This document shows, piece by piece, positions 771-15,785 of a stretch of DNA of 15,808 bases. Every line of letters begins with the position of its first letter. Within the stretch, counting starts at the first letter, position 1. Under the pieces are notes generated by a model. It was given only the letters and a program-made list of their open reading frames with translations. It searched no databases and was not told the DNA's origin. The DNA is from a virus (Duplodnaviria > Heunggongvirae > Uroviricota > Caudoviricetes). Position numbers and translations under genes: made by a program. The DNA lies in IMG/VR virus record IMGVR_UViG_2706794698_000009; one strand, 5' to 3'.

Positions 771-965
771 TTAATCAATCACTCCCGCAAATCTGTAAAT
801 CTTGTGTGATGCCCATTTATTTGGGCAGGATTTAATATCAGGATCTGGAAAGTCAGGCCTGTATTTCTGGCCAGTTCTCCTGTTTACGCTGTTCCAGCGA
901 AGAACAGTCGATACTGAAACACCACAGAAATCGGCGACTTGTTTAGTTGTCATTAAGTTGTTCAT
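771..965 (-). CDS. Excisionase / AlpA-family HTH DNA-binding protein (putative recombination directionality factor)
   Basis: 64 aa; the segment TKQVADFCGVSVSTVLRW resembles the excisionase/AlpA-type HTH. AGGAGG lies 8 nt upstream of the ATG, and the start overlaps the upstream stop as TAATG. It is the last gene of the leftward operon. Confidence 0.6.
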   Translation of the reverse strand: MNNLMTTKQVADFCGVSVSTVLRWNSVNRRTGQKYRPDFPDPDIKSCPNKWASHKIYRFAGVID

Positions 966-1585
966 TACTTCACCTCCTGCGGCGGCTCCGGTAGCGGCAT
1001 CCAGTGGGTTACTTTCGATGCCGGTTCTTCCCCATTGTCAGTAACTGCCCACCATTTGTTTCTCGAACAATCGTAATACCCTTCGAAGGTATCGCACTCA
1101 GTCCAGCCGTAAGACTTACCCCAACACCAAACATACTGTTTATCGTTCGGCATTCGCTCACTACAGCTTATCCAACCATCCGGAGTTACCGGAGAGTTGC
1201 CCGACAGCTTGTTCAACTTGTAAGTCTGGCTTACAGGTTTGGCACCATGAAGCATGGTGGCGCGGCAGGCGTTCCAGCCTTCATCAAAACCGACTATGCC
1301 ATTATTTAAAGACGGACGAGCATCTGGCACCACCAGTACTGGCTTGGCTATATATAGCGGCTGAACATACCAGCCCTTTGATAACCAACTGTCAGCAATG
1401 TTTTTGCTCCTGGTTATTGCCGGAATACCTAAGCCATTGTCTGAATGCAGCCATGCCACCGGCTCCTCTTCCAGCGATGCCAGAGCAATTTCATAAGCAC
1501 GGCGCTCAATATCGTCTCGAACCTCTAGGCTGCTGATTCGTTCTTTGATTTCTTTAATCAGTTCTTTATTGGTAAATGTGGTCAT
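965..1585 (-). CDS. DUF551-domain prophage protein (YfdT-like, longer form)
   Basis: 206 aa; the C-terminus carries the DUF551-type signature (WCWGKSYGW ... VTHWMPLPEPP). The start overlaps the upstream stop as TAATG. Confidence 0.7.
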   Translation of the reverse strand: MTTFTNKELIKEIKERISSLEVRDDIERRAYEIALASLEEEPVAWLHSDNGLGIPAITRSKNIADSWLSKGWYVQPLYIAKPVLVVPDARPSLNNGIVGFDEGWNACRATMLHGAKPVSQTYKLNKLSGNSPVTPDGWISCSERMPNDKQYVWCWGKSYGWTECDTFEGYYDCSRNKWWAVTDNGEEPASKVTHWMPLPEPPQEVK

Positions 1586-1947
1586 TATGCTCCAGCCTCC
1601 GGCGCTTTGGGTATTACTGCCCAGTGAGTGATATTGAAGTTTTCAAGGTCCCCGACCTGAAATGTCCACTGCCATTCTCCGGTTTCTTTTTGTCCCCAGG
1701 TGTACCAGAGAGAACGCCAGCCAATCAGCCAGCCTTCTCCGTTAGCATCAAATAACAGAACACTTTCATTTGCTGGTGGCAGTTCAGCTGACACTGGTAT
1801 TATTTTGTTTTCCAGTGCCGCACATTTAGCTTCAAGCGCGTCGAATTTACGTACCAGGTACTCAGCATTTGTTTCGTTCACTTTCAGATCTCGCGGTACA
1901 CATTTCCCGCGAAGAAACCCTTCCATTTCGAAAACATTCATGCGCAT
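1585..1947 (-). CDS. yfdS: DUF551-domain prophage protein, YfdS-like
   Basis: 120 aa beginning MRMNVFEMEGFLRGK and containing ITHWAVIPKAPE; recognised from memory as YfdS of the CPS-53/KplE1 prophage. It overlaps the upstream gene by 10 nt. Confidence 0.7.
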   Translation of the reverse strand: MRMNVFEMEGFLRGKCVPRDLKVNETNAEYLVRKFDALEAKCAALENKIIPVSAELPPANESVLLFDANGEGWLIGWRSLWYTWGQKETGEWQWTFQVGDLENFNITHWAVIPKAPEAGA

Positions 1948-2402
1948 TTGCGTAACTCCGATAACTCGTTAAAACGTTCCATAAACATCCCGTAGGCATG
2001 GCCAGGTGCCAGTGGAATCACGTTGAACATCTCTGTTGCTGGGATGCCTTCCAGTACAGGCCAGAAAGAGCCATCATCAAGCCCGAGATCGCGGCGTTCG
2101 GTTGCCAGCATGATAAGATCGGCATATTTCACGGGCGTACTCATAACTGGGGGTAACCCGTATTTCTCACGGATTACGGCATCTATTTTTTCTTCCATCC
2201 GTTTATAGTCAGGAAGAAGGCGTTTCAGTGGCGCGGGAATGTCCTGACAATACGCTTCTGTTGCATCATGCATTAACGCTTCAAAAGCAAATTCCTGCGG
2301 TACCAGCTGGCTGCAAAGCACCGCATGTTGGGCGACGCTGTAGAAGTGTGAAAGATGTCCTGCAAAGCGACAGATATTTGAAAGGGAAACCGCGATATCG
2401 TT
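1938..2402 (-). CDS. yfdR: HD-domain 5'-deoxynucleotidase YfdR (N-terminus masked)
   Basis: The visible translation NDIAVSLSNICRFAGHLSHFYSVAQHAVLCSQLVPQEFAFEALMHDATEAY... contains the HD motif and matches remembered YfdR. The frame stays open into the N block at 2403, so the real start is inside the mask. Confidence 0.85.
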   Translation of the reverse strand, partial: NDIAVSLSNICRFAGHLSHFYSVAQHAVLCSQLVPQEFAFEALMHDATEAYCQDIPAPLKRLLPDYKRMEEKIDAVIREKYGLPPVMSTPVKYADLIMLATERRDLGLDDGSFWPVLEGIPATEMFNVIPLAPGHAYGMFMERFNELSELRKCA

Positions 2403-2662
2403 NNNNNNNNNNNNNNNNNNNNNNNNNNNNNNNNNNNNNNNNNNNNNNNNNNNNNNNNNNNNNNNNNNNNNNNNNNNNNNNNNNNNNNNNNNNNNNNNNN
2501 NNNNNNNNNNNNNNNNNNNNNNNNNNNNNNNNNNNNNNNNNNNNNNNNNNNNNNNNNNNNNNNNNNNNNNNNNNNNNNNNNNNNNNNNNNNNNNNNNNNN
2601 NNNNNNNNNNNNNNNNNNNNNNNNNNNNNNNNNNNNNNNNNNNNNNNNNNNNNNNNNNNNNN

Positions 2663-3445
2663 TTTGAATTTCTCAACAAGCAGATCACGAAATTCGTTAG
2701 CCATATCTTCCTGCACCGCTTCCAGCTGAATAATGCGCAGAACCAGTACAGGACGATCGCCAGTGATAATGCTGAGGCGTAATTTAAACGGACGTTCTTT
2801 CAGACCTTCAAACGGAACGCATTTAAATTCAAATGCCACTGGCATAATGTCTTTGGTCTTCGCTTCGACAGATTCCATCAGGGAGCGTTTGCCGCTGAAG
2901 TCATTATCTTCAAAATCAGCGGTCTGGTTTGCTTCAATCGTGATTTTACGGATTGCCGCAGCCGCTTTTGTTGCCTGAATGGCGTCACCATTAGCATCAA
3001 AGCCCACAAGGTAATCGGCCCAGTCTTCAATCCATTCTGCCAGTGACTTCTGGGAGTTACGCTCGCCGTTAACAGACAACAGTGCAGAGAACGGTGCTGT
3101 CTTTTTCAGTTTGAGAGTGGCGGTGTTATCTGCGTGACCTGGTTCATTAATAGTACCCAGGTTAAGCACACTGACGGCACGCATATTATCATCATCGATA
3201 AAGCAGCGGGTGCCTTCATCTGCAAGATCTTTAGAATAACGGGTAAAATCATCGATGCTGGCAGTGGAAAGCGCACCACGGAAACGGAAGCGATTTAAAT
3301 TAAATTTTTCCAGATCATGAATGCGGAAATTCTCAGGCAATGCTACAGCATCGGCACCAATCTTACTGATAATTTCATTAACACCCTGAGCAGAAATAAG
3401 GGCATGGATTTGATTAATTGCAGTTGCGTCTAAGCTCTGAGACAT
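2663..3445 (-). CDS. yfdQ: YfdQ-like DUF2303 prophage protein (C-terminus masked)
   Basis: The ATG at 3445 has GAGGA 6 nt upstream. 261 aa are visible and the frame runs into the N block at 2662. The ORF-track 390-aa product is an artefact of translating N as X across two genes. Confidence 0.6.
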
Positions 3446-3510
3446 AATAAGTCCTCACTATATTAAGATATTCAGTGATGAGATAAATAATCAGTTAATT
3501 AAGAACGATA

Positions 3511-3873
3511 TTAATGACCTGCTGCGCGGAGTTTTCCGTCAGGATCACCGGCAAGAGTCAGTAATTGTCCCTGGTCTTCCTGCAGAATAGTCAGGCGACC
3601 ACCGCGATTGACATACATCGGCGTTTCGGTGGTGTCTTCTTCGGAAATTTTCCCGCGGTTAGTCGGGCGAACATATGAGAGTTTGTGTTTGATTTTCACA
3701 CGGTTCTCATCAAACGGTTCGATTTCCAGGTTGAGCGAGACCTTACCTTTGGTTTTCGTGTTCATCACACCGGAAGCGACTTCACTGAGAACTGCGCCGA
3801 TTTTGGTTTCAAATACGCCGCCGTCCAGCTCCCCAATAAATGCCTGCACATCAGTACTGCGTTCGCTAGCCAT
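3511..3873 (-). CDS. Small early-left prophage protein of unknown function (YfdP-like position)
   Basis: 120 aa if started at the ATG giving MASERSTDV..., which has GAGGAG 7 nt upstream. Two further in-frame ATGs at 3891 and 3888 would give 126 aa. Protein-like composition; no motif recognised. Confidence 0.6.
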   Translation of the reverse strand: MASERSTDVQAFIGELDGGVFETKIGAVLSEVASGVMNTKTKGKVSLNLEIEPFDENRVKIKHKLSYVRPTNRGKISEEDTTETPMYVNRGGRLTILQEDQGQLLTLAGDPDGKLRAAGH

Positions 3874-4480
3874 TTTGCTGCTCCTCATCATATCGACCCT
3901 GCAAGGTCGGTTGGTTTCTCCACAAAACAGAGAAGAACACCTGCGGTGGCAGCCGCCCGGATGGATTGGGTTATGAGCCCNNNNNNNNNNNNNNNNNNNN
4001 NNNNNNNNNNNNNNNNNNNNNNNNNNNNNNNNNNNNNNNNNNNNNNNNNNNNNNNNNNNNNNNNNNNNNNNNNNNNNNNNNNNNNNNNNNNNNNNNNNNN
4101 NNNNNNNNNNNNNNNNNNNNNNNNNNNNNNNNNNNNNNNNNNNNNNNNNNNNNNNNNNNNNNNNNNNNNNNNNNNNNNNNNNNNNNNNNNNNNNNNNNNN
4201 NNNNNNNNNNNNNNNNNNNNNNNNNNNNNNNNNNNNNNNNNTCCATAAATGCCCTCATCGTTGCACCCTGGTCTCTTCCCAGGCGTCAAACCGAATCGCC
4301 ACGCTGGTTAGGCGTCTTATCAGCATCATCATTGACTTGCACATTCCGGCTACCTGGTTTGTTTGCCCGAGCAAGGAGTGGATTGTCCCCTTTAACGTCC
4401 CCAGACCGCTAACGACGCATGTGCCATACGCCGTGTTACAACCAAATTTTGTTAGTACCTTGTTTGTTTGTCTGGAAAGA

Positions 4481-4533
4481 AAGATAAAATGAAGTTGCGC
4501 ATTATGCAAGTGTTTTTGTTGCGAGATATGCAA
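4481..4533 (-). promoter_or_regulatory. Leftward early promoter region with two candidate repressor operators (OL/PL-like)
   Basis: Two 15-bp dyads of the form TTGC-N7-GCAA: TTGCGCATTATGCAA (4495-4509) and TTGCGAGATATGCAA (4519-4533). On the minus strand a TTGCAT -35 lies inside the first dyad, with a weak TATCTT 17 bp downstream. Confidence 0.4.
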
Positions 4534-4544
4534 TTTAAAGGGTA

Positions 4545-4568
4545 ATGAAAAGCCACCTTTGGGTGGCT
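4545..4568 (-). terminator. Intrinsic terminator downstream of the repressor gene
   Basis: A 7-bp GC-rich stem, AGCCACC (4551-4557) and GGTGGCT (4562-4568), with loop TTTG. On the minus strand it is followed by TTTTCATT. It lies about 20 nt past the repressor stop. Confidence 0.5.
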
Positions 4569-4588: not shown

Positions 4589-5281
4589 TTAATTGTGTCG
4601 CTTAAGGGTTTGTGACTGGCTGATTAAGACCTTTCCAAAGACCATAAACCGGTGTTCATTTTCGCTGGTAATTCCCCATTCACGGTAAATCTGGTTATCA
4701 GAAATCACCAGTAGTTTGTCAGGTATCATTTGCAGTCGTTTGACATAAATTTTATCATCAAAACCAAATACATAGATACCATCTCCATCAAACTGATTGA
4801 TACTGACATCAACGAAGATGAGATCTCCTGGCTCAATGGTTGGACACATACTGTCCCCACGAACGTTGATAACTTTAATGTGATTGGCTGGCCGTCCGCC
4901 AAACATCGATACAGCATTATCAGTTCTGTATTCAATGGCATGAATCACATCAATGACATCACCGCCCTGGATAAGGCCATTTCCCGCACTGGCACTGACA
5001 TCCAGCATTTCAATACGGAATACATCCTTCACCTGCGCAACATCCTCACTAATACTGTTTTTACATACAGTATTACTTTTGACGTCTGAGGTAAAGAGAT
5101 CAGCAATATCAACACCTAAGCTCCTGGCAATATTACTCAGGGCTTGTTCAGTGAATTGTTTCTGCTTACCTGTTTCCAGGCGTGAGATATTCGCCGCATC
5201 CACTCCTATTGCTTCAGCGAGATCGGCGATTTTCATGTTCTTCGCCTGGCGAAGTTGTCTGACTCGGTTTCCTATGTTCAT
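4589..5281 (-). CDS. cI-like prophage repressor (N-terminal XRE-type HTH, C-terminal S24 LexA-like autopeptidase)
   Basis: 230 aa. The N-terminus (IADLAEAIGVDAANISRLETGK) is HTH-like. The C-terminus carries a candidate Ala-Gly cleavage site (SASAGNG), the Ser motif GDSM and the Lys motif VKRL. The gene is divergent from the cro-like gene. Confidence 0.85.
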   Translation of the reverse strand: MNIGNRVRQLRQAKNMKIADLAEAIGVDAANISRLETGKQKQFTEQALSNIARSLGVDIADLFTSDVKSNTVCKNSISEDVAQVKDVFRIEMLDVSASAGNGLIQGGDVIDVIHAIEYRTDNAVSMFGGRPANHIKVINVRGDSMCPTIEPGDLIFVDVSINQFDGDGIYVFGFDDKIYVKRLQMIPDKLLVISDNQIYREWGITSENEHRFMVFGKVLISQSQTLKRHN

Positions 5282-5287
5282 GCGTTT

Positions 5288-5364
5288 ATTACATTTCTTT
5301 ATTGCGCGTTAAGCAAATCAACTTGCGCAAAATATTTGCGTGAAATAATATGCTCATCACGCAA
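5288..5364. promoter_or_regulatory. Divergent PRM/PR-like switch region with operator dyads
   Basis: A third TTGC-N7-GCAA dyad, TTGCGCGTTAAGCAA, sits at 5302-5316. The palindrome TTGCGCAA is at 5323-5330, and TTGCGTGA-N13-TCACGCAA at 5336-5364. Rightward promoter: -35 TTGCGC (5323-5328), 17-bp spacer, -10 TAATAT (5346-5351). Leftward promoter: -35 TTGCTT (complement of 5311-5316), 17-bp spacer, -10 TGTAAT (complement of 5288-5293), which would give a near-leaderless repressor mRNA. Confidence 0.5.
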
Positions 5365-6518: not shown

Positions 6519-6538
6519 AGGTCGGTCATGAGCACTAA
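6359..6538 (+). CDS. Alternative-frame small ORF (59 aa), or the 3' part of a frameshifted gene
   Basis: TTG at 6359 with AAGGAG (6344-6349) 9 nt upstream. The translation [59 protein letters not shown] is protein-like. Its TAA at 6536-6538 overlaps the start of the replication gene at 6528. Confidence 0.35.
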
Positions 6539-7469
6539 ATTAACCGGCTATGTATGGGATGGTTGCGCTGCATCAGGCATGAAATTATCCAGCGTGGCAA
6601 TTATGGCCCGCCTGGCTGATTTCAGTAATGACGAAGGTGTGTGCTGGCCATCAATTGAAACTATTGCCCGTCAGATTGGCGCGGGGATGAGTACCGTCAG
6701 GACGGCTATCGCGCGGCTGGAAGCAGAAGGCTGGTTAACGCGTAAGGCGCGTCGCCAGGGTAACCGCAATGCGTCGAATGTTTATCAGCTTAACGTTGCG
6801 AAGCTTCAGGCAGCGGCATTTTCTCAACTGTCAGATTCTGACCCGTCAAAATCTGACGCATCAAAATCTGACCCGTCAAAATTTGATGCGTCGAAATCTG
6901 GCAAAAAAGCGGGTTTTCACCCGTCAGAATCTGGCGGGGATCCGTCAGTAAAATCAAAACATGATCCGTCAGATAAAAAACCTTCTCGTCCGGACGCTTC
7001 GCAACCGGACACGCAGACGGATGAACAGGATTTTTTAACTCGCCATCCTGATGCGGTTGTATTCAGCCCTAAAAAGCGCCAGTGGGGAACGCAGGATGAT
7101 TTGACCTGCGCACAGTGGCTCTGGAAAAAAATCATCGCCCTGTACGAGCAAGCCGCCGAATGTGACGGCGAGGTGGTTCGTCCCAAAGAACCGAACTGGA
7201 CAGCCTGGGCAAACGAAATTCGCCTGATGTGTGTGCAGGATGGTCGTACTCACAAACAAATCTGCGAGATGTACAGCCGCGTCAGCCGCGATCCGTTCTG
7301 GTGCCGTAACGTGCTCAGCCCGTCGAAGTTGCGGGAAAAATGGGATGAGCTTTCCCTGCGCTTATCACCGTCCGTCAGCACGTACACCGAAAAACGCGAA
7401 GACCCGTACTTCAAATCCAGTTACGACAACGTGGACTACAGCCAGATCCCGGCAGGATTCAGGGGGTGA
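6528..7469 (+). CDS. Phage replication initiation protein (O-like; N-terminal winged-HTH, repeat linker, C-terminal DnaT-like region)
   Basis: 313 aa. The N-terminus (ARLADFSNDEGVCWPSIETIARQIGAGMSTVRTAIARLEAEGWL) resembles the replication-initiator HTH. The internal pentapeptide repeats DPSKS/DASKS are encoded by DNA iterons. Position is right of the cro/cII-like genes. Confidence 0.7.
   Translation: MSTKLTGYVWDGCAASGMKLSSVAIMARLADFSNDEGVCWPSIETIARQIGAGMSTVRTAIARLEAEGWLTRKARRQGNRNASNVYQLNVAKLQAAAFSQLSDSDPSKSDASKSDPSKFDASKSGKKAGFHPSESGGDPSVKSKHDPSDKKPSRPDASQPDTQTDEQDFLTRHPDAVVFSPKKRQWGTQDDLTCAQWLWKKIIALYEQAAECDGEVVRPKEPNWTAWANEIRLMCVQDGRTHKQICEMYSRVSRDPFWCRNVLSPSKLREKWDELSLRLSPSVSTYTEKREDPYFKSSYDNVDYSQIPAGFRG
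6827..6979 (+). repeat. Iteron array (candidate phage origin of replication) inside the initiator gene
   Basis: Five contiguous 15-bp direct repeats with consensus CCGTCAAAATCTGA span 6827-6901. Three further spaced copies lie at 6920-6934, 6941-6955 and 6965-6979. This is analogous to the lambda origin inside gene O. Confidence 0.6.
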
Positions 7470-8308: not shown

Positions 8309-8622
8309 NNNNNNNNNNNNNNNNNNNNNNNNNNNNNNNNNNNNNNNNNNNNNNNNNNNNNNNNNNNNNNNNNNNNNNNNNNNNNNNNNNNNNNNNNNNN
8401 NNNNNNNNNNNNNNNNNNNNNNNNNNNNNNNNNNNNNNNNNNNNNNNNNNNNNNNNNNNNNNNNNNNNNNNNNNNNNNNNNNNNNNNNNNNNNNNNNNNN
8501 NNNNNNNNNNNNNNNNNNNNNNNNNNNNNNNNNNNNNNNNNNNNNNNNNNNNNNNNNNNNNNTGAGGCGTTTCTGGCGCAGGTTCGCCAGCAGGCGGAAA
8601 AACTGGTCAGGGAGATGGCGGC

Positions 8623-12555: not shown

Positions 12556-12855
12556 AAAAATTCCTTAATACTGATAACTGGGCGCACTATACACACGTTC
12601 CTGAAGAAAGCTATAGTTTTTTGATGGGGTTGAAGATGGCTGGATGTCTAAAATAAACATTGCTTCATATGTTCAACTATGCGTTAATGATTGCGTCGGT
12701 TTGAAGAACAGACGATATACGAAGTAGTTTACTAAAGCAGTTCTCATTTCAGGTGTTATTCACTTATTCCTTCTTTGAGTCTCTCCAATTAAGTACGAAG
12801 TCGTTTCTGTTATACAAGCCATTTATGCCGAAAGGCTCAAGTTAAGGAATGTAGA

Positions 12856-13071
12856 ATGTCAAATAAAATGACTGGTTTAGTAAAATGGTTTAACGCTGAT
12901 AAAGGTTTTGGCTTTATTTCTCCTGTTGATGGTAGTAAAGATGTGTTTGTGCATTTTTCTGCGATTCAGAATGATAATTTTCGAACCTTATTTGAAGGTC
13001 AAAAGGTTACCTTCTCTGTAGAGAGTGGTGCTAAAGGTCCTGCAGCAGCAAATGTCATAATTACTGATTAA
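12856..13071 (+). CDS. cspB: Cold-shock protein CspB
   Basis: 71 aa: [71 protein letters not shown], near-identical to remembered CspB. It has a long upstream leader typical of cold-shock genes. Confidence 0.9.
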
Positions 13072-13755
13072 AATTCATAGTTTGTCTGTATACGATAACG
13101 AAGAAGGCTGATGCCTGAGTGGAGATACAGACAGAGTGGTGAATATTGGATCTCTTTAATAAATAGTAAGGAGGTCCAATACATGAAACAATGGCCAGCA
13201 TATTTGGCAATAACTTAATCAGGAAAAGTATGCTAACCATTGTGGTGAAGTGCAGGTTTGCTGCATGAATAGTTTTACAGCAGAAGCTAACTGCTGGCAT
13301 AGCAAAACAAAGTGCGTAAGTGGATGACNNNNNNNNNNNNNNNNNNNNNNNNNNNNNNNNNNNNNNNNNNNNNNNNNNNNNNNNNNNNNNNNNNNNNNNN
13401 NNNNNNNNNNNNNNNNNNNNNNNNNNNNNNNNNNNNNNNNNNNNNNNNNNNNNNNNNNNNNNNNNNNNNNNNNNNNNNNNNNNNNNNNNNNNNNNNNNNN
13501 NNNNNNNNNNTGATTTTGAGTCTTTACGTTCTGACATAGGCTTTTCCTGTATAAATGGCCGTATACAGTACACTAAATATGAAAACATATCTCGTATTAT
13601 TATTTAATACATGATTTTCTTTTAAAATAATTACCCACATTTTTAATGTGTCTGTTTTTTAGCGCCGTTGAGAACAATGTTTGCTATAAAAACTAACCCA
13701 TAGACTCCGATCTTTTCAAACATATTGCACCATCTGTGTACATCGGGGCGAGGAT

Positions 13756-13916: not shown

Positions 13917-14165
13917 NNNNNNNNNNNNNNNNNNNNNNNNNNNNNNNNNNNNNNNNNNNNNNNNNNNNNNNNNNNNNNNNNNNNNNNNNNNNNNNNNNNN
14001 NNNNNNNNNNNNNNNNNNNNNNNNNNNNNNNNNNNNNNNNNNNNNNNNNNNNNNNNNNNNNNNNNNNNNNNNNNNNNNNNNNNNNNNNNNNNNNNNNNNN
14101 NNNNNNNNNNNNNNNNNNNNNNNNNNNNNNNNNNNNNNNNNNNNNNNNNNNNNNNNNNNNNGAAT

Positions 14166-14357: not shown

Positions 14358-14763
14358 NNNNNNNNNNNNNNNNNNNNNNNNNNNNNNNNNNNNNNNNNNN
14401 NNNNNNNNNNNNNNNNNNNNNNNNNNNNNNNNNNNNNNNNNNNNNNNNNNNNNNNNNNNNNNNNNNNNNNNNNNNNNNNNNNNNNNNNNNNNNNNNNNNN
14501 NNNNNNNNNNNNNNNNNNNNNNNNNNNNNNNNNNNNNNNNNNNNNNNNNNNNNNNNNNNNNNNNNNNNNNNNNNNNNNNNNNNNNNNNNNNNNNNNNNNN
14601 NNNNNNNTTAAATCAGCAAAAGTTTGTTTTGGTAGATTTGTGTAATCCATAGTCACCTCTGTGTTTATCAGATTGACATCCTCCTCCCGCCAGTGCCCAT
14701 CACTGGTGAGGTAAGATTTAACATATCCGGGGATTTGAAGCCGATAAATCCTGATAAATATCC

Positions 14764-15785
<1,022 letters not shown>

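Follow-up and report, generated by a model that had tools for sequence, protein, structure and literature searches.

A yfd gene block in a prophage's early-left region, and a conserved structured RNA in its leader

Leftward phage genes that closely resemble the yfd genes of an E. coli K-12 prophage raise the question of whether such a block acts on host replication once the phage is induced, and of how transcription would reach it. We addressed this for a virus sequence of 15,808 nt, here called the window, in which six such genes lie downstream of a CI-type repressor.

Gene order and relation to the K-12 prophage

The coding part of the region comprises the following features.

771–965, minus strand: excisionase-like gene (64 aa), last of the leftward operon; phrog_1553 excisionase, E 6.4e-36
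965–1585, minus strand: gene of a 206-aa protein in the yfdT position; phrog_60
1585–1947, minus strand: yfdS (120 aa); 98.3% identical to K-12 YfdS; phrog_583
1938–2402, minus strand: visible part of yfdR, residues 25–178; residues 1–24 masked
2403–2662: masked run of 260 N; 241 nt in an identical relative (L001 14633–14873)
2663–3445, minus strand: visible part of yfdQ, residues 1–260 of 274; 98.8% identical to K-12 YfdQ
3511–3873, minus strand: yfdP (120 aa), first protein gene of the operon; 98.3% identical to K-12 YfdP

According to the open reading frame listing and the sequence, six minus-strand genes occupy 771–3873 in the order yfdP, yfdQ, yfdR, yfdS, the gene of a DUF551 protein and xis, and the first-pass annotation is exact on the overlaps it gives for 965, 1585 and 1938–1947. 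At 963–967, where the start codon of the 64-aa excisionase gene overlaps the stop of the DUF551 gene, and at 1583–1587 a TAA stop shares one base with the following ATG (TAATG), and yfdR and yfdS overlap by 10 nt (1938–1947, ATGCGCATGA). The annotation had called the whole operon translationally coupled. Because overlaps are confined to three of the five junctions, all of them promoter-distal, the term fits the stretch yfdR-yfdS-DUF551-xis, as far as sequence can tell, and not the entire operon: yfdP and yfdQ are separated by 65 nt, and yfdQ and yfdR by about 127 nt as measured in the relative L001. This second spacer contains a 9-bp hairpin, AAAUGCCCC-UGCG-GGGGCAUUU (fold −18.2 kcal/mol, z = −3.05), and in phage Ayreon a feature at the same site is annotated 'terminator'. 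Start-stop overlaps as such are ordinary in phage operons and constitute no statistical anomaly.

Relative L001, which shows 100% identity with the window on both flanks of the mask, indicates that the run at 2403–2662 covers the yfdR start, the 127-nt spacer and yfdQ's final 14 codons. The lengths of the N runs are not the true ones (260 N correspond to 241 nt and 261 N to 248 nt in relatives), so gene ends inside the masks have no window coordinates. Since int, terminase and portal genes are present in L003, the closest relative, we consider the prophage plausibly complete.

The block closely matches K-12 prophage CPS-53 (KpLE1), where yfdP-yfdQ-yfdR-yfdS-yfdT-torI follow one another in the same order and orientation with the same spacers and the same 10-nt yfdR/yfdS overlap. 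The expected alignment to the K-12 proteins held for YfdP, YfdQ, YfdR and YfdS, which are 98–99% identical. The reported strong match to YfdR is 99.4% identity over the 154 visible residues (25–178; translation next to the mask NDIAVSLSNICRFAGH...), and in L001 the same value is reached across all 178 residues. For YfdT the expectation failed beyond the N-terminus: K-12 YfdT has 101 aa and shares only 42 residues with the 206-aa protein of the window (95% identity, the blastp alignment covering residues 1–42 only), residues 137–203 of which match DUF551 (PF04448, E 2e-18). This protein resembles an Ea22-variant-like mosaic. CPS-53 also differs in its last gene, since TorI is unrelated to the excisionase of the window and comparison of the two revealed no similarity, and in that its immunity region and leader are gone; 5′ of yfdP, the match extends over just 19 nt. 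The 64-aa protein has an N-terminal HTH_17/MerR-type helix-turn-helix, and its counterpart in phage cdtI is annotated 'excisionase'. Judged by these comparisons, the yfdPQRS genes are a known and ordinary, near-exact copy of K-12 prophage genes.

The yfd block also occurs in functional phages (Ayreon, cdtI, 2H10 and Stx2c phages), and in Serratia prophages a syntenic trio of YfdP, YfdQ and a 177-aa protein adjoins an S24 repressor. Translation of yfdP probably starts at the ATG at 3873, 7 nt after a GAGGAG Shine-Dalgarno sequence; an alternative in-frame ATG lies at 3891. YfdP homologues match PF27127 (YfdP), YfdQ is a DUF2303 protein (PF10065, E 9.5e-92), and the C-terminus of YfdS shows a weak DUF551-like match. 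PADLOC defence models matched neither any protein of the block nor the neighbouring 239-aa protein.

Possible action on host replication

Work on the K-12 genes indicates what the block might do. YfdR binds DnaA at Phe46 in domain I, in competition with DiaA and DnaB (Noguchi & Katayama 2016, PMC4776307), and multicopy yfdQ and yfdR together with either yfdS or yfdT inhibit initiation at oriC (PMC4776307); on DnaA binding and on inhibition the first-pass annotation gave the literature accurately. The effect is known from multicopy plasmids only, deletion of yfdQRST has no initiation phenotype, and Noguchi and Katayama allow for a possible overexpression artefact (PMC4776307). A host-takeover role has already been proposed for an ancestral propagative phage, with SfV homologues cited (PMC4776307); the idea is thus not new and has been in print since 2016. 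In the window yfdQ, yfdR and yfdS, the minimum inhibitory set, are all present and near-identical to K-12, and of the fourth member, YfdT, residues 1–42 are found, the remainder being DUF551.

The phage background agrees with published relatives. Searches with Pfam and PHROGs found no recombinase, nuclease or anti-RecBCD gene in the early-left operon that would represent a Rec module of the exo/bet/gam, erf/abc or recET type. This agrees with the Rec-less lambdoid LLS group (Zheng et al., PMC12315714), and Chi sites are distributed 5:1 in favor of one orientation, as in that group. In LLS (gp37–39), ST64B (gp35–37) and SfV (orf29–31), which are N-less lambdoid phages, the early-left operon likewise contains a yfdP-yfdQ-HD trio (PMC12315714, PMC4776307), and like the window these phages have an O-only replication module and a genome rich in Chi. 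We lean slightly towards the reading that 771–3873 is the early-left block of a lambdoid prophage without N or a recombination module ('LLS functional type'), whose YfdQ, YfdR and YfdS would damp host initiation after induction. An early phage protein that disturbs the host initiator during phage replication is also known in lambda P, an analogy drawn by Noguchi and Katayama (PMC4776307). Lambda P, however, is unrelated to YfdR and contacts domain III of DnaA instead of Phe46 in domain I; it binds DnaA, captures DnaB and is essential for phage replication, whereas YfdR has no known phage phenotype.

The block could instead act on nucleotides, with YfdR as a dNMP phosphatase that, for example, reshapes deoxynucleotide pools during phage growth and binds DnaA incidentally. 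The HD motif of YfdR is intact, with H50, H69-D70 and D118 as putative metal ligands, and YfdR aligns with the HD protein Atu1052 (PDB 2gz4; E 1e-13) with this motif in register. Databases name it accordingly: the RefSeq product name is '5′-deoxynucleotidase', the family phrog_318 is termed 'deoxyribonucleoside 5′ monophosphate phosphatase', and Zheng et al. (PMC12315714) call the homologue a putative 5′-nucleotide phosphatase. However, YfdR is a low-affinity 5′-deoxynucleotidase (PMC4776307) whose nucleotide affinities lie much below those of YfbR (Zimmerman 2008, as cited in PMC4776307), its match to the Pfam YfbR-like family (24.3 bits, cut-off 25.9) and its NCBIfam score both stay under the curated cut-offs, and the need for yfdQ and yfdS or yfdT would be left unexplained. 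We consider this alternative unlikely.

In this Rec-less phage YfdP and YfdQ, on the other hand, are found at the Rec-module position and might be unrecognised DNA-transaction proteins (in recombination, end protection or replication) that replace it. A homologue of YfdQ has been solved as an assembly of 36 chains (PDB 9o7m, 'YfdQ Protein'; no paper was found under this code, nor among recent papers that mention YfdQ), and yfdQ deletion leads to MMS sensitivity (PMC4776307). Against this, the cluster is also found in phages with a complete Rec module, Zheng et al. judge a recombination role unlikely (PMC12315714), YfdQRST showed no tight oriC binding in vitro (PMC4776307), and we detected no resemblance in fold to SSAP, Gam or SSB proteins; such a function seems very improbable to us. 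AlphaFold2 models of YfdQ (pLDDT 75.9) and YfdP (pLDDT 68.0) gave no Foldseek match in the PDB with E < 0.001 and no informative known fold, and a fold-based assignment of function to these two proteins was dropped, the comparison being uninformative.

A structured RNA and a terminator ahead of yfdP

The first-pass annotation placed the operon under a cI-type repressor. An S24 CI gene and two operators do lie upstream; what intervenes is some 620 nt of leader that contain both a structured RNA and a terminator.

3874–3980, minus strand: promoter-proximal untranslated region that travels with yfdP; also in phages without the RNA
3981–4241: masked run; contents read from L003 10224–9985 and L001 16192–16439
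4257–4438, minus strand: core of a conserved structured RNA with five helices; model R1 181.7 bits, E 6e-52
4495–4509 and 4519–4533: two CI operator-like palindromes TTGC-N7-GCAA, presumed OL/pL
4551–4568, minus strand: cI terminator hairpin, AGCCACC-CAAA-GGUGGCU then UUUCAUU
4589–5281, minus strand: CI-type repressor (230 aa) with HTH and S24 LexA-like autocleavage domain

The repressor domains match PF00717 (E 6e-19) and PF01381/PF13443. The paired operators lie 24 bp apart, centre to centre; TTGC-N7-GCAA occurs three times in the window, where 0.59 would be expected, and the third copy (5302–5316) is located between cI and cro. A consensus scan of the minus strand detected no canonical sigma-70 promoter at pL; by eye, the region offers CATAAT (4501–4506) with a poor −35 element or a possible TTGCAT-17-TATCTT. 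The leader between the operators (4495–4533) and yfdP contains no N gene; neither annotation nor gene detection places a gene of any kind between cI and yfdP, in the window or in three relatives.

The core of the RNA is 182 nt long. Its covariation is pronounced: 95.6% of cells are paired, compared with 24–42% when the partners are slid, and eight pairs of the stems are changed on both sides in a compensatory manner. In the relatives, the masked run 3981–4241 holds the RNA's long 3′ hairpin, a further structured and conserved domain (GUUGUGGU...ACCACAAC) and a terminator, read there as GGCGGUACCAG...CUGGUACCGCU followed by CUUUUUACA (fold −22.5 kcal/mol). This terminator, a hairpin of 12–13 bp with a U-tract about 110 nt before yfdP, is kept across contexts with compensatory changes. 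What is unexpected in this region is that a conserved structured RNA, unannotated and with a terminator of its own, is situated between the repressor-controlled promoter and the yfd genes; it is a new complication for early-left expression. A 92-aa ORF with a TTG start at 4255–4533 was rejected as a protein gene on account of the compensatory stem changes and of indels that are not multiples of three.

Among 5426 complete E. coli genomes, 1833 carry the RNA; P1/P7 and Uetakeviruses have it as well, and there it adjoins tRNA genes: in P1/P7 it lies directly 3′ of a tRNA gene in the C1-controlled ban operon, and in Uetakeviruses a stand-alone unit consists of promoter, structured RNA, tRNA-Arg and terminator. 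It is absent from K-12 e14 and CPS-53. LLS and SfV differ from the window in the same respect; only the yfdP-proximal part of the leader matches, as it does in SfV, Kati and PhiR29_1 (query 522–706), and the structured RNA is missing. Rfam 15 gave no gathering-score match in the window or L003 and, for the leader, no relevant match up to E = 5; ARAGORN found no tRNA or tmRNA in the leader, and literature searches returned no description of the RNA. The HK022/HK639 put RNAs are similar in that they are leader RNAs tens of nt 3′ of pL in N-less lambdoid phages, with a terminator after the RNA. The base of put stem I is identical to the base of the first hairpin (CGGCG...CAUGCGUCG), these 5 bp being the sole shared part. 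In contrast, put comprises about 70 nt and two stems, compared with the 182-nt five-helix core and further domains found here, and unlike put the RNA also occurs stand-alone with its own terminator and beside tRNA genes. The leader was rejected as an HK022-type put RNA because the R1 and R2 covariance models, run with filters off, missed both HK022 putL and the annotated HK639 putL-like RNA.

In our preferred scheme for the replication reading, SOS cleavage of CI would start leftward transcription, which would first yield a structured RNA of about 430 nt ending at the conserved intrinsic terminator. As this terminator sits between pL and yfdP, yfd expression on induction would need read-through, and only polymerases that read through would get to yfdP-xis. 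YfdQ, YfdR and YfdS would then damp initiation on the host chromosome during replication of a phage that, with only an O-type initiator, would have to borrow DnaB and DnaC from its host. Several observations speak against this scheme: yfdT is replaced, a strong hairpin with a U-tract precedes yfdP, another hairpin is present between yfdQ and yfdR, no canonical promoter was found at pL, and the YfdP and YfdQ models have no informative fold match. No antiterminator was identified for the early-left block.

The same terminator, being conserved between pL and yfdP, would suit a block that is mainly cargo of benefit to the lysogen (e.g. stress tolerance), with low pL-independent expression and insulated by the leader terminator. 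In K-12 the genes persist although no immunity region is left, 3958 of 5426 complete E. coli genomes contain the block in part or in full, and sensitivity to H2O2 or MMS is reported for yfdQ and yfdS deletion mutants (PMC4776307). However, the promoter scan found no promoter-like site between the terminator and yfdP, and the block is placed and oriented as a classical early-left operon with xis as its last gene, and xis must be expressed on induction. A cargo role appears rather improbable on these grounds.

Concerning the leader itself, we tentatively suggest that the first product of leftward early transcription may be not a protein but the structured RNA of about 430 nt, composed of the 182-nt core, the long 3′ hairpin, the second domain and the conserved terminator. 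It could represent an undescribed family of phage non-coding RNAs, either as a stable RNA released by tRNA-processing enzymes or as a leader in control of read-through to the yfd genes; we hold this as a possibility of somewhat less than even weight.

Meaning for early-left control

The flagged genes themselves add little, as near-identical K-12 genes have been characterised and earlier publications already place them in early-left operons of active lambdoid phages. The window's contribution is rather an apparently complete natural prophage, where the takeover idea could be tested under its own control; earlier replication work relied on multicopy plasmids of a cryptic remnant. The structured RNA, a by-product of the analysis, may matter more than the flagged genes: it is present in a third of complete E. 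coli genomes, is unannotated, stands at the head of the operon and is common to P1-type phage-plasmids and Uetakeviruses, often joined to tRNA genes. If the leader governs read-through, any expression of the DnaA-binding module would depend on the RNA. Provided that the RNA is functional, it would be a common phage RNA overlooked by current genome annotation and would help explain early-left control in N-less lambdoid phages.

Organization and identity of the yfd gene block

We compared the window proteins directly with those of the cryptic prophage CPS-53 of E. coli K-12 MG1655. The ORF listing of the presumed early-left operon is as follows:

771-965, minus strand: 64-aa ORF
965-1585, minus strand: 206-aa ORF
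1585-1947, minus strand: 120-aa ORF
1938 to the mask at 2403, minus strand: ORF entering the mask
2662 to 3445, minus strand: ORF starting at 3445, emerging from the mask at 2662
3511-3873, or alternatively 3511-3891, minus strand: ORF
2403-2662, 3981-4241, 8309-8562, 13329-13510, 13917-14161, 14358-14607 and 14929-15178: masks

All seven N runs are masks whose lengths are not true: in L001 (E. coli 806883-11-2019), a relative with 100% identity, 260 N correspond to 241 nt and 261 N to 248 nt, and 182 N replace 250 nt in relatives with both flanks identical. Coordinates and reading frames across masks are therefore unreliable. The first-pass annotation had named a YfdR-type HD-domain protein in a yfdQ-yfdR-yfdS-yfdT cluster, and the alignments bear out YfdR (99.4% identity to K-12, 154 visible residues) and YfdS (98.3%, 120 aa). 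YfdP (120 aa) is 98.3% identical; for YfdQ the figure is 98.8% across its 260 visible residues and, in L001, 98.9% across 274. YfdR retains the HD motif (H50, H69-D70, D118) and can be aligned to the HD protein Atu1052 (PDB 2gz4). However, yfdT is absent: the gene at its position aligns to YfdT over residues 1-42 only, beyond which it has a DUF551 domain (PF04448, E 2e-18), a mosaic of the kind reported for Ea22 variants (PMC10834534). By its PHROG match (phrog_1553, E 6e-36) the 64-aa protein is an excisionase; it is unrelated to K-12 TorI. YfdQ belongs to DUF2303 and YfdP has its own Pfam family, PF27127; AlphaFold2 models of both matched no informative fold in a library without PDB 9o7m, and PADLOC gave no match for the proteins of the block. 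The entry 9o7m, 'YfdQ Protein', is a homologue of the 2663-3445 product (phmmer E 1.4e-43 to YfdQ); its 36 chains imply a large assembly of a YfdQ-family protein. A literature search found no publication on it.

The operon had also been described as translationally coupled. At the promoter-distal junctions this agrees with the sequence, as TAATG occurs at 963-967 and 1583-1587 and the 10-nt overlap ATGCGCATGA at 1938-1947, but both promoter-proximal junctions are gapped, by 65 nt between yfdP and yfdQ and by 127 nt between yfdQ and yfdR in L001. The latter spacer carries a GC-rich hairpin (-18.2 kcal/mol, z = -3.05):

L001 14832-14704, minus strand (under mask 2403-2662 in the window): spacer holding the hairpin AAAUGCCCC-UGCG-GGGGCAUUU, perfect over 9 bp and lacking a U-tract

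The site is annotated as 'terminator' in phage Ayreon, and the hairpin may serve attenuation or RNA stability within the operon.

Among 5426 complete E. coli genomes, 3958 match part of the block and 395 match at least 80% of it. Phage records with a match number 421, and the functional phages Ayreon, cdtI, 2H10 and Stx2c phages are among them; Serratia prophages carry a syntenic YfdP-YfdQ-177-aa trio adjoining an S24 repressor.

The first-pass account of yfdQRST agrees with Noguchi and Katayama (2016, PMC4776307). In that study multicopy yfdQ and yfdR with either yfdS or yfdT suppressed over-initiation and inhibited wild-type initiation; yfdP was not needed, and gene deletions had no initiation phenotype. 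The authors considered an overexpression artefact a possible source of the effect, named SfV homologues and proposed, by analogy with lambda P, that the genes aided phage growth in a propagative ancestor. The reading as a 'host-takeover module' is thus a hypothesis already published there; the window offers a natural setting for it and adds nothing new in evidence.

Phage type and immunity region

The prophage adjoins yjjG; its integrase and the early-left operon converge. In L003, the relative closest over the whole window (97.8%), the sequence runs on into terminase and portal genes, so the prophage is plausibly complete.

1-770 (L001 10490-12718), plus strand: integrase and a 239-aa gene, transcribed toward xis
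4495-4509 and 4519-4533: 15-bp palindromes TTGC-N7-GCAA, centres 24 bp apart
4551-4568: terminator hairpin of cI
4589-5281: CI repressor with HTH and S24 autocleavage domain
5302-5316: third TTGC-N7-GCAA palindrome, between cI and cro
6528-7469, plus strand: gene for a 313-aa O-like HTH protein; a PerC/YfdN-like gene comes next
1772, 5830, 7983, 10397 and 10668, plus strand; 10797, minus strand: Chi sites

The 239-aa gene (phrog_8440) is AT-rich (32% GC) and gave no Pfam or PADLOC match. Ayreon has a different, 729-aa gene in this slot, which therefore looks like a variable cargo position. Searches with Pfam and PHROGs found no recombination module within the early-left operon. The O-like protein is the sole evident replication gene in the L003 annotation, which lists no P, DnaB or DnaC-type gene; Zheng et al. 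(2025, PMC12315714) recorded this 'O only' arrangement in 34 lambdoid phages. Chi sites (GCTGGTGG) are distributed 5:1 by strand over 15.8 kb, and no N-like gene separates cI from yfdP, either in the window or in three annotated relatives. The lack of a Rec module, O-only replication, Chi bias and lack of N are shared with the Chi-rich lambdoid phages without a Rec module that Zheng et al. class as the 'LLS functional type'; these authors suggested put-like RNA antitermination as possible for such N-less phages. In the late region, a cspA thermoregulator Rfam match (156.5 bits, 12695-13134, plus strand) lies upstream of a cspB-like gene; relatives carry three clustered cold-shock genes near the lysis genes.

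Rightward of CI follow cro-like and then CII-like genes. The palindrome occurs three times (0.59 expected) in a classical operator layout; a good sigma-70 consensus was not seen at pL, the presumed leftward early promoter. Control of the block by a cI-type repressor is plausible given the S24 CI with operators upstream, but a putative RNA gene and a terminator intervene.

A probable structured RNA between the operators and yfdP

The leader between the operators and yfdP spans roughly 620 nt. In a blastn search with the leader of L003, about 180-245 nt were kept at 77-83% in unrelated phages, including P1/P7, TL-2011b and O157 typing phage 9. The alignments contain compensatory changes (CCUGG/CCAGG versus CCUCG/CGAGG versus GCCGG/CCGGC; GGGAU/AUCCC versus UUGAU/AUCAA versus GACGC/GCGU).

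4257-4438, minus strand: RNA core, 182 nt, five helices (covariance model, 181.7 bits)
L003 10425-9990, minus strand: whole RNA unit, continuing in the window under mask 3981-4241

Covariation was counted on 13 distinct sequences: 95.6% of cells were paired in the five-helix structure versus 24-42% with partners slid, and both sides had changed at 8 pairs (31 cells). None of 500 shuffles matched the covariation score. Since the 13 sequences are mutually related and were themselves the source of the structure, these figures are supportive of a structured RNA, not proof. The leader had no match in Rfam 15, and ARAGORN found no tRNA or tmRNA. After the core, relatives have a long, also covarying 3′ hairpin, a second conserved domain and a terminator (hairpin of 12-13 bp plus CUUUUUACA, -22.5 kcal/mol), all under mask 3981-4241 in the window.

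Lambdoid and Uetakevirus settings alike have this terminator downstream of the RNA, with an identical tail and compensatory changes. Among 133 collected loci, 59 lie between an upstream cI and a downstream yfdP, 11 have cI upstream but are followed by other genes (e.g. xis-int directly), 22 are P1-type and 33 adjoin tRNA genes. In Uetakeviruses the RNA lies immediately 5′ of tRNA-Arg; the TL-2011b unit reads TTGACA promoter-like site, core, long hairpin, tRNA-Arg, terminator. In P1/P7 the RNA has a tRNA gene on one side and ban on the other. In P7 a tRNA gene's 3′ end directly precedes the core, which is ahead of ban within the C1-controlled ban operon. Of 5426 complete E. coli genomes, 1833 carry the core, with no RefSeq annotation of it in any; a scan of genomes chosen as representatives found it in seven enterobacterial species. 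TerB-like and small DUF3927/TciB-like genes occur both in the cI-yfdP interval of Serratia prophages (L136/L139 3634-4211) and in the P7 ban operon (L005 1715-2313), so P1-type early and lambdoid early-left operons have several small modules in common in addition to the RNA.

The leader RNA has the base of its first hairpin (CGGCG...CAUGCGUCG) in common with HK022 putL and with the putL-like RNA annotated in HK639. However, neither the full nor the 5′-module covariance model matched the HK022 or HK639 site with filters off, and membership of the put family was rejected. The RNA's own terminator and its occurrence by itself, as a unit linked to tRNA genes, argue more for a discrete RNA gene than for a simple leader acting in cis. 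With a strong terminator between pL and yfdP, pL transcripts must traverse it to reach yfdP; no antiterminator for this read-through was identified. The flagged yfd gene block is already known, and the leader RNA is the only item in this analysis that may be new; it merits a separate follow-up of its own.
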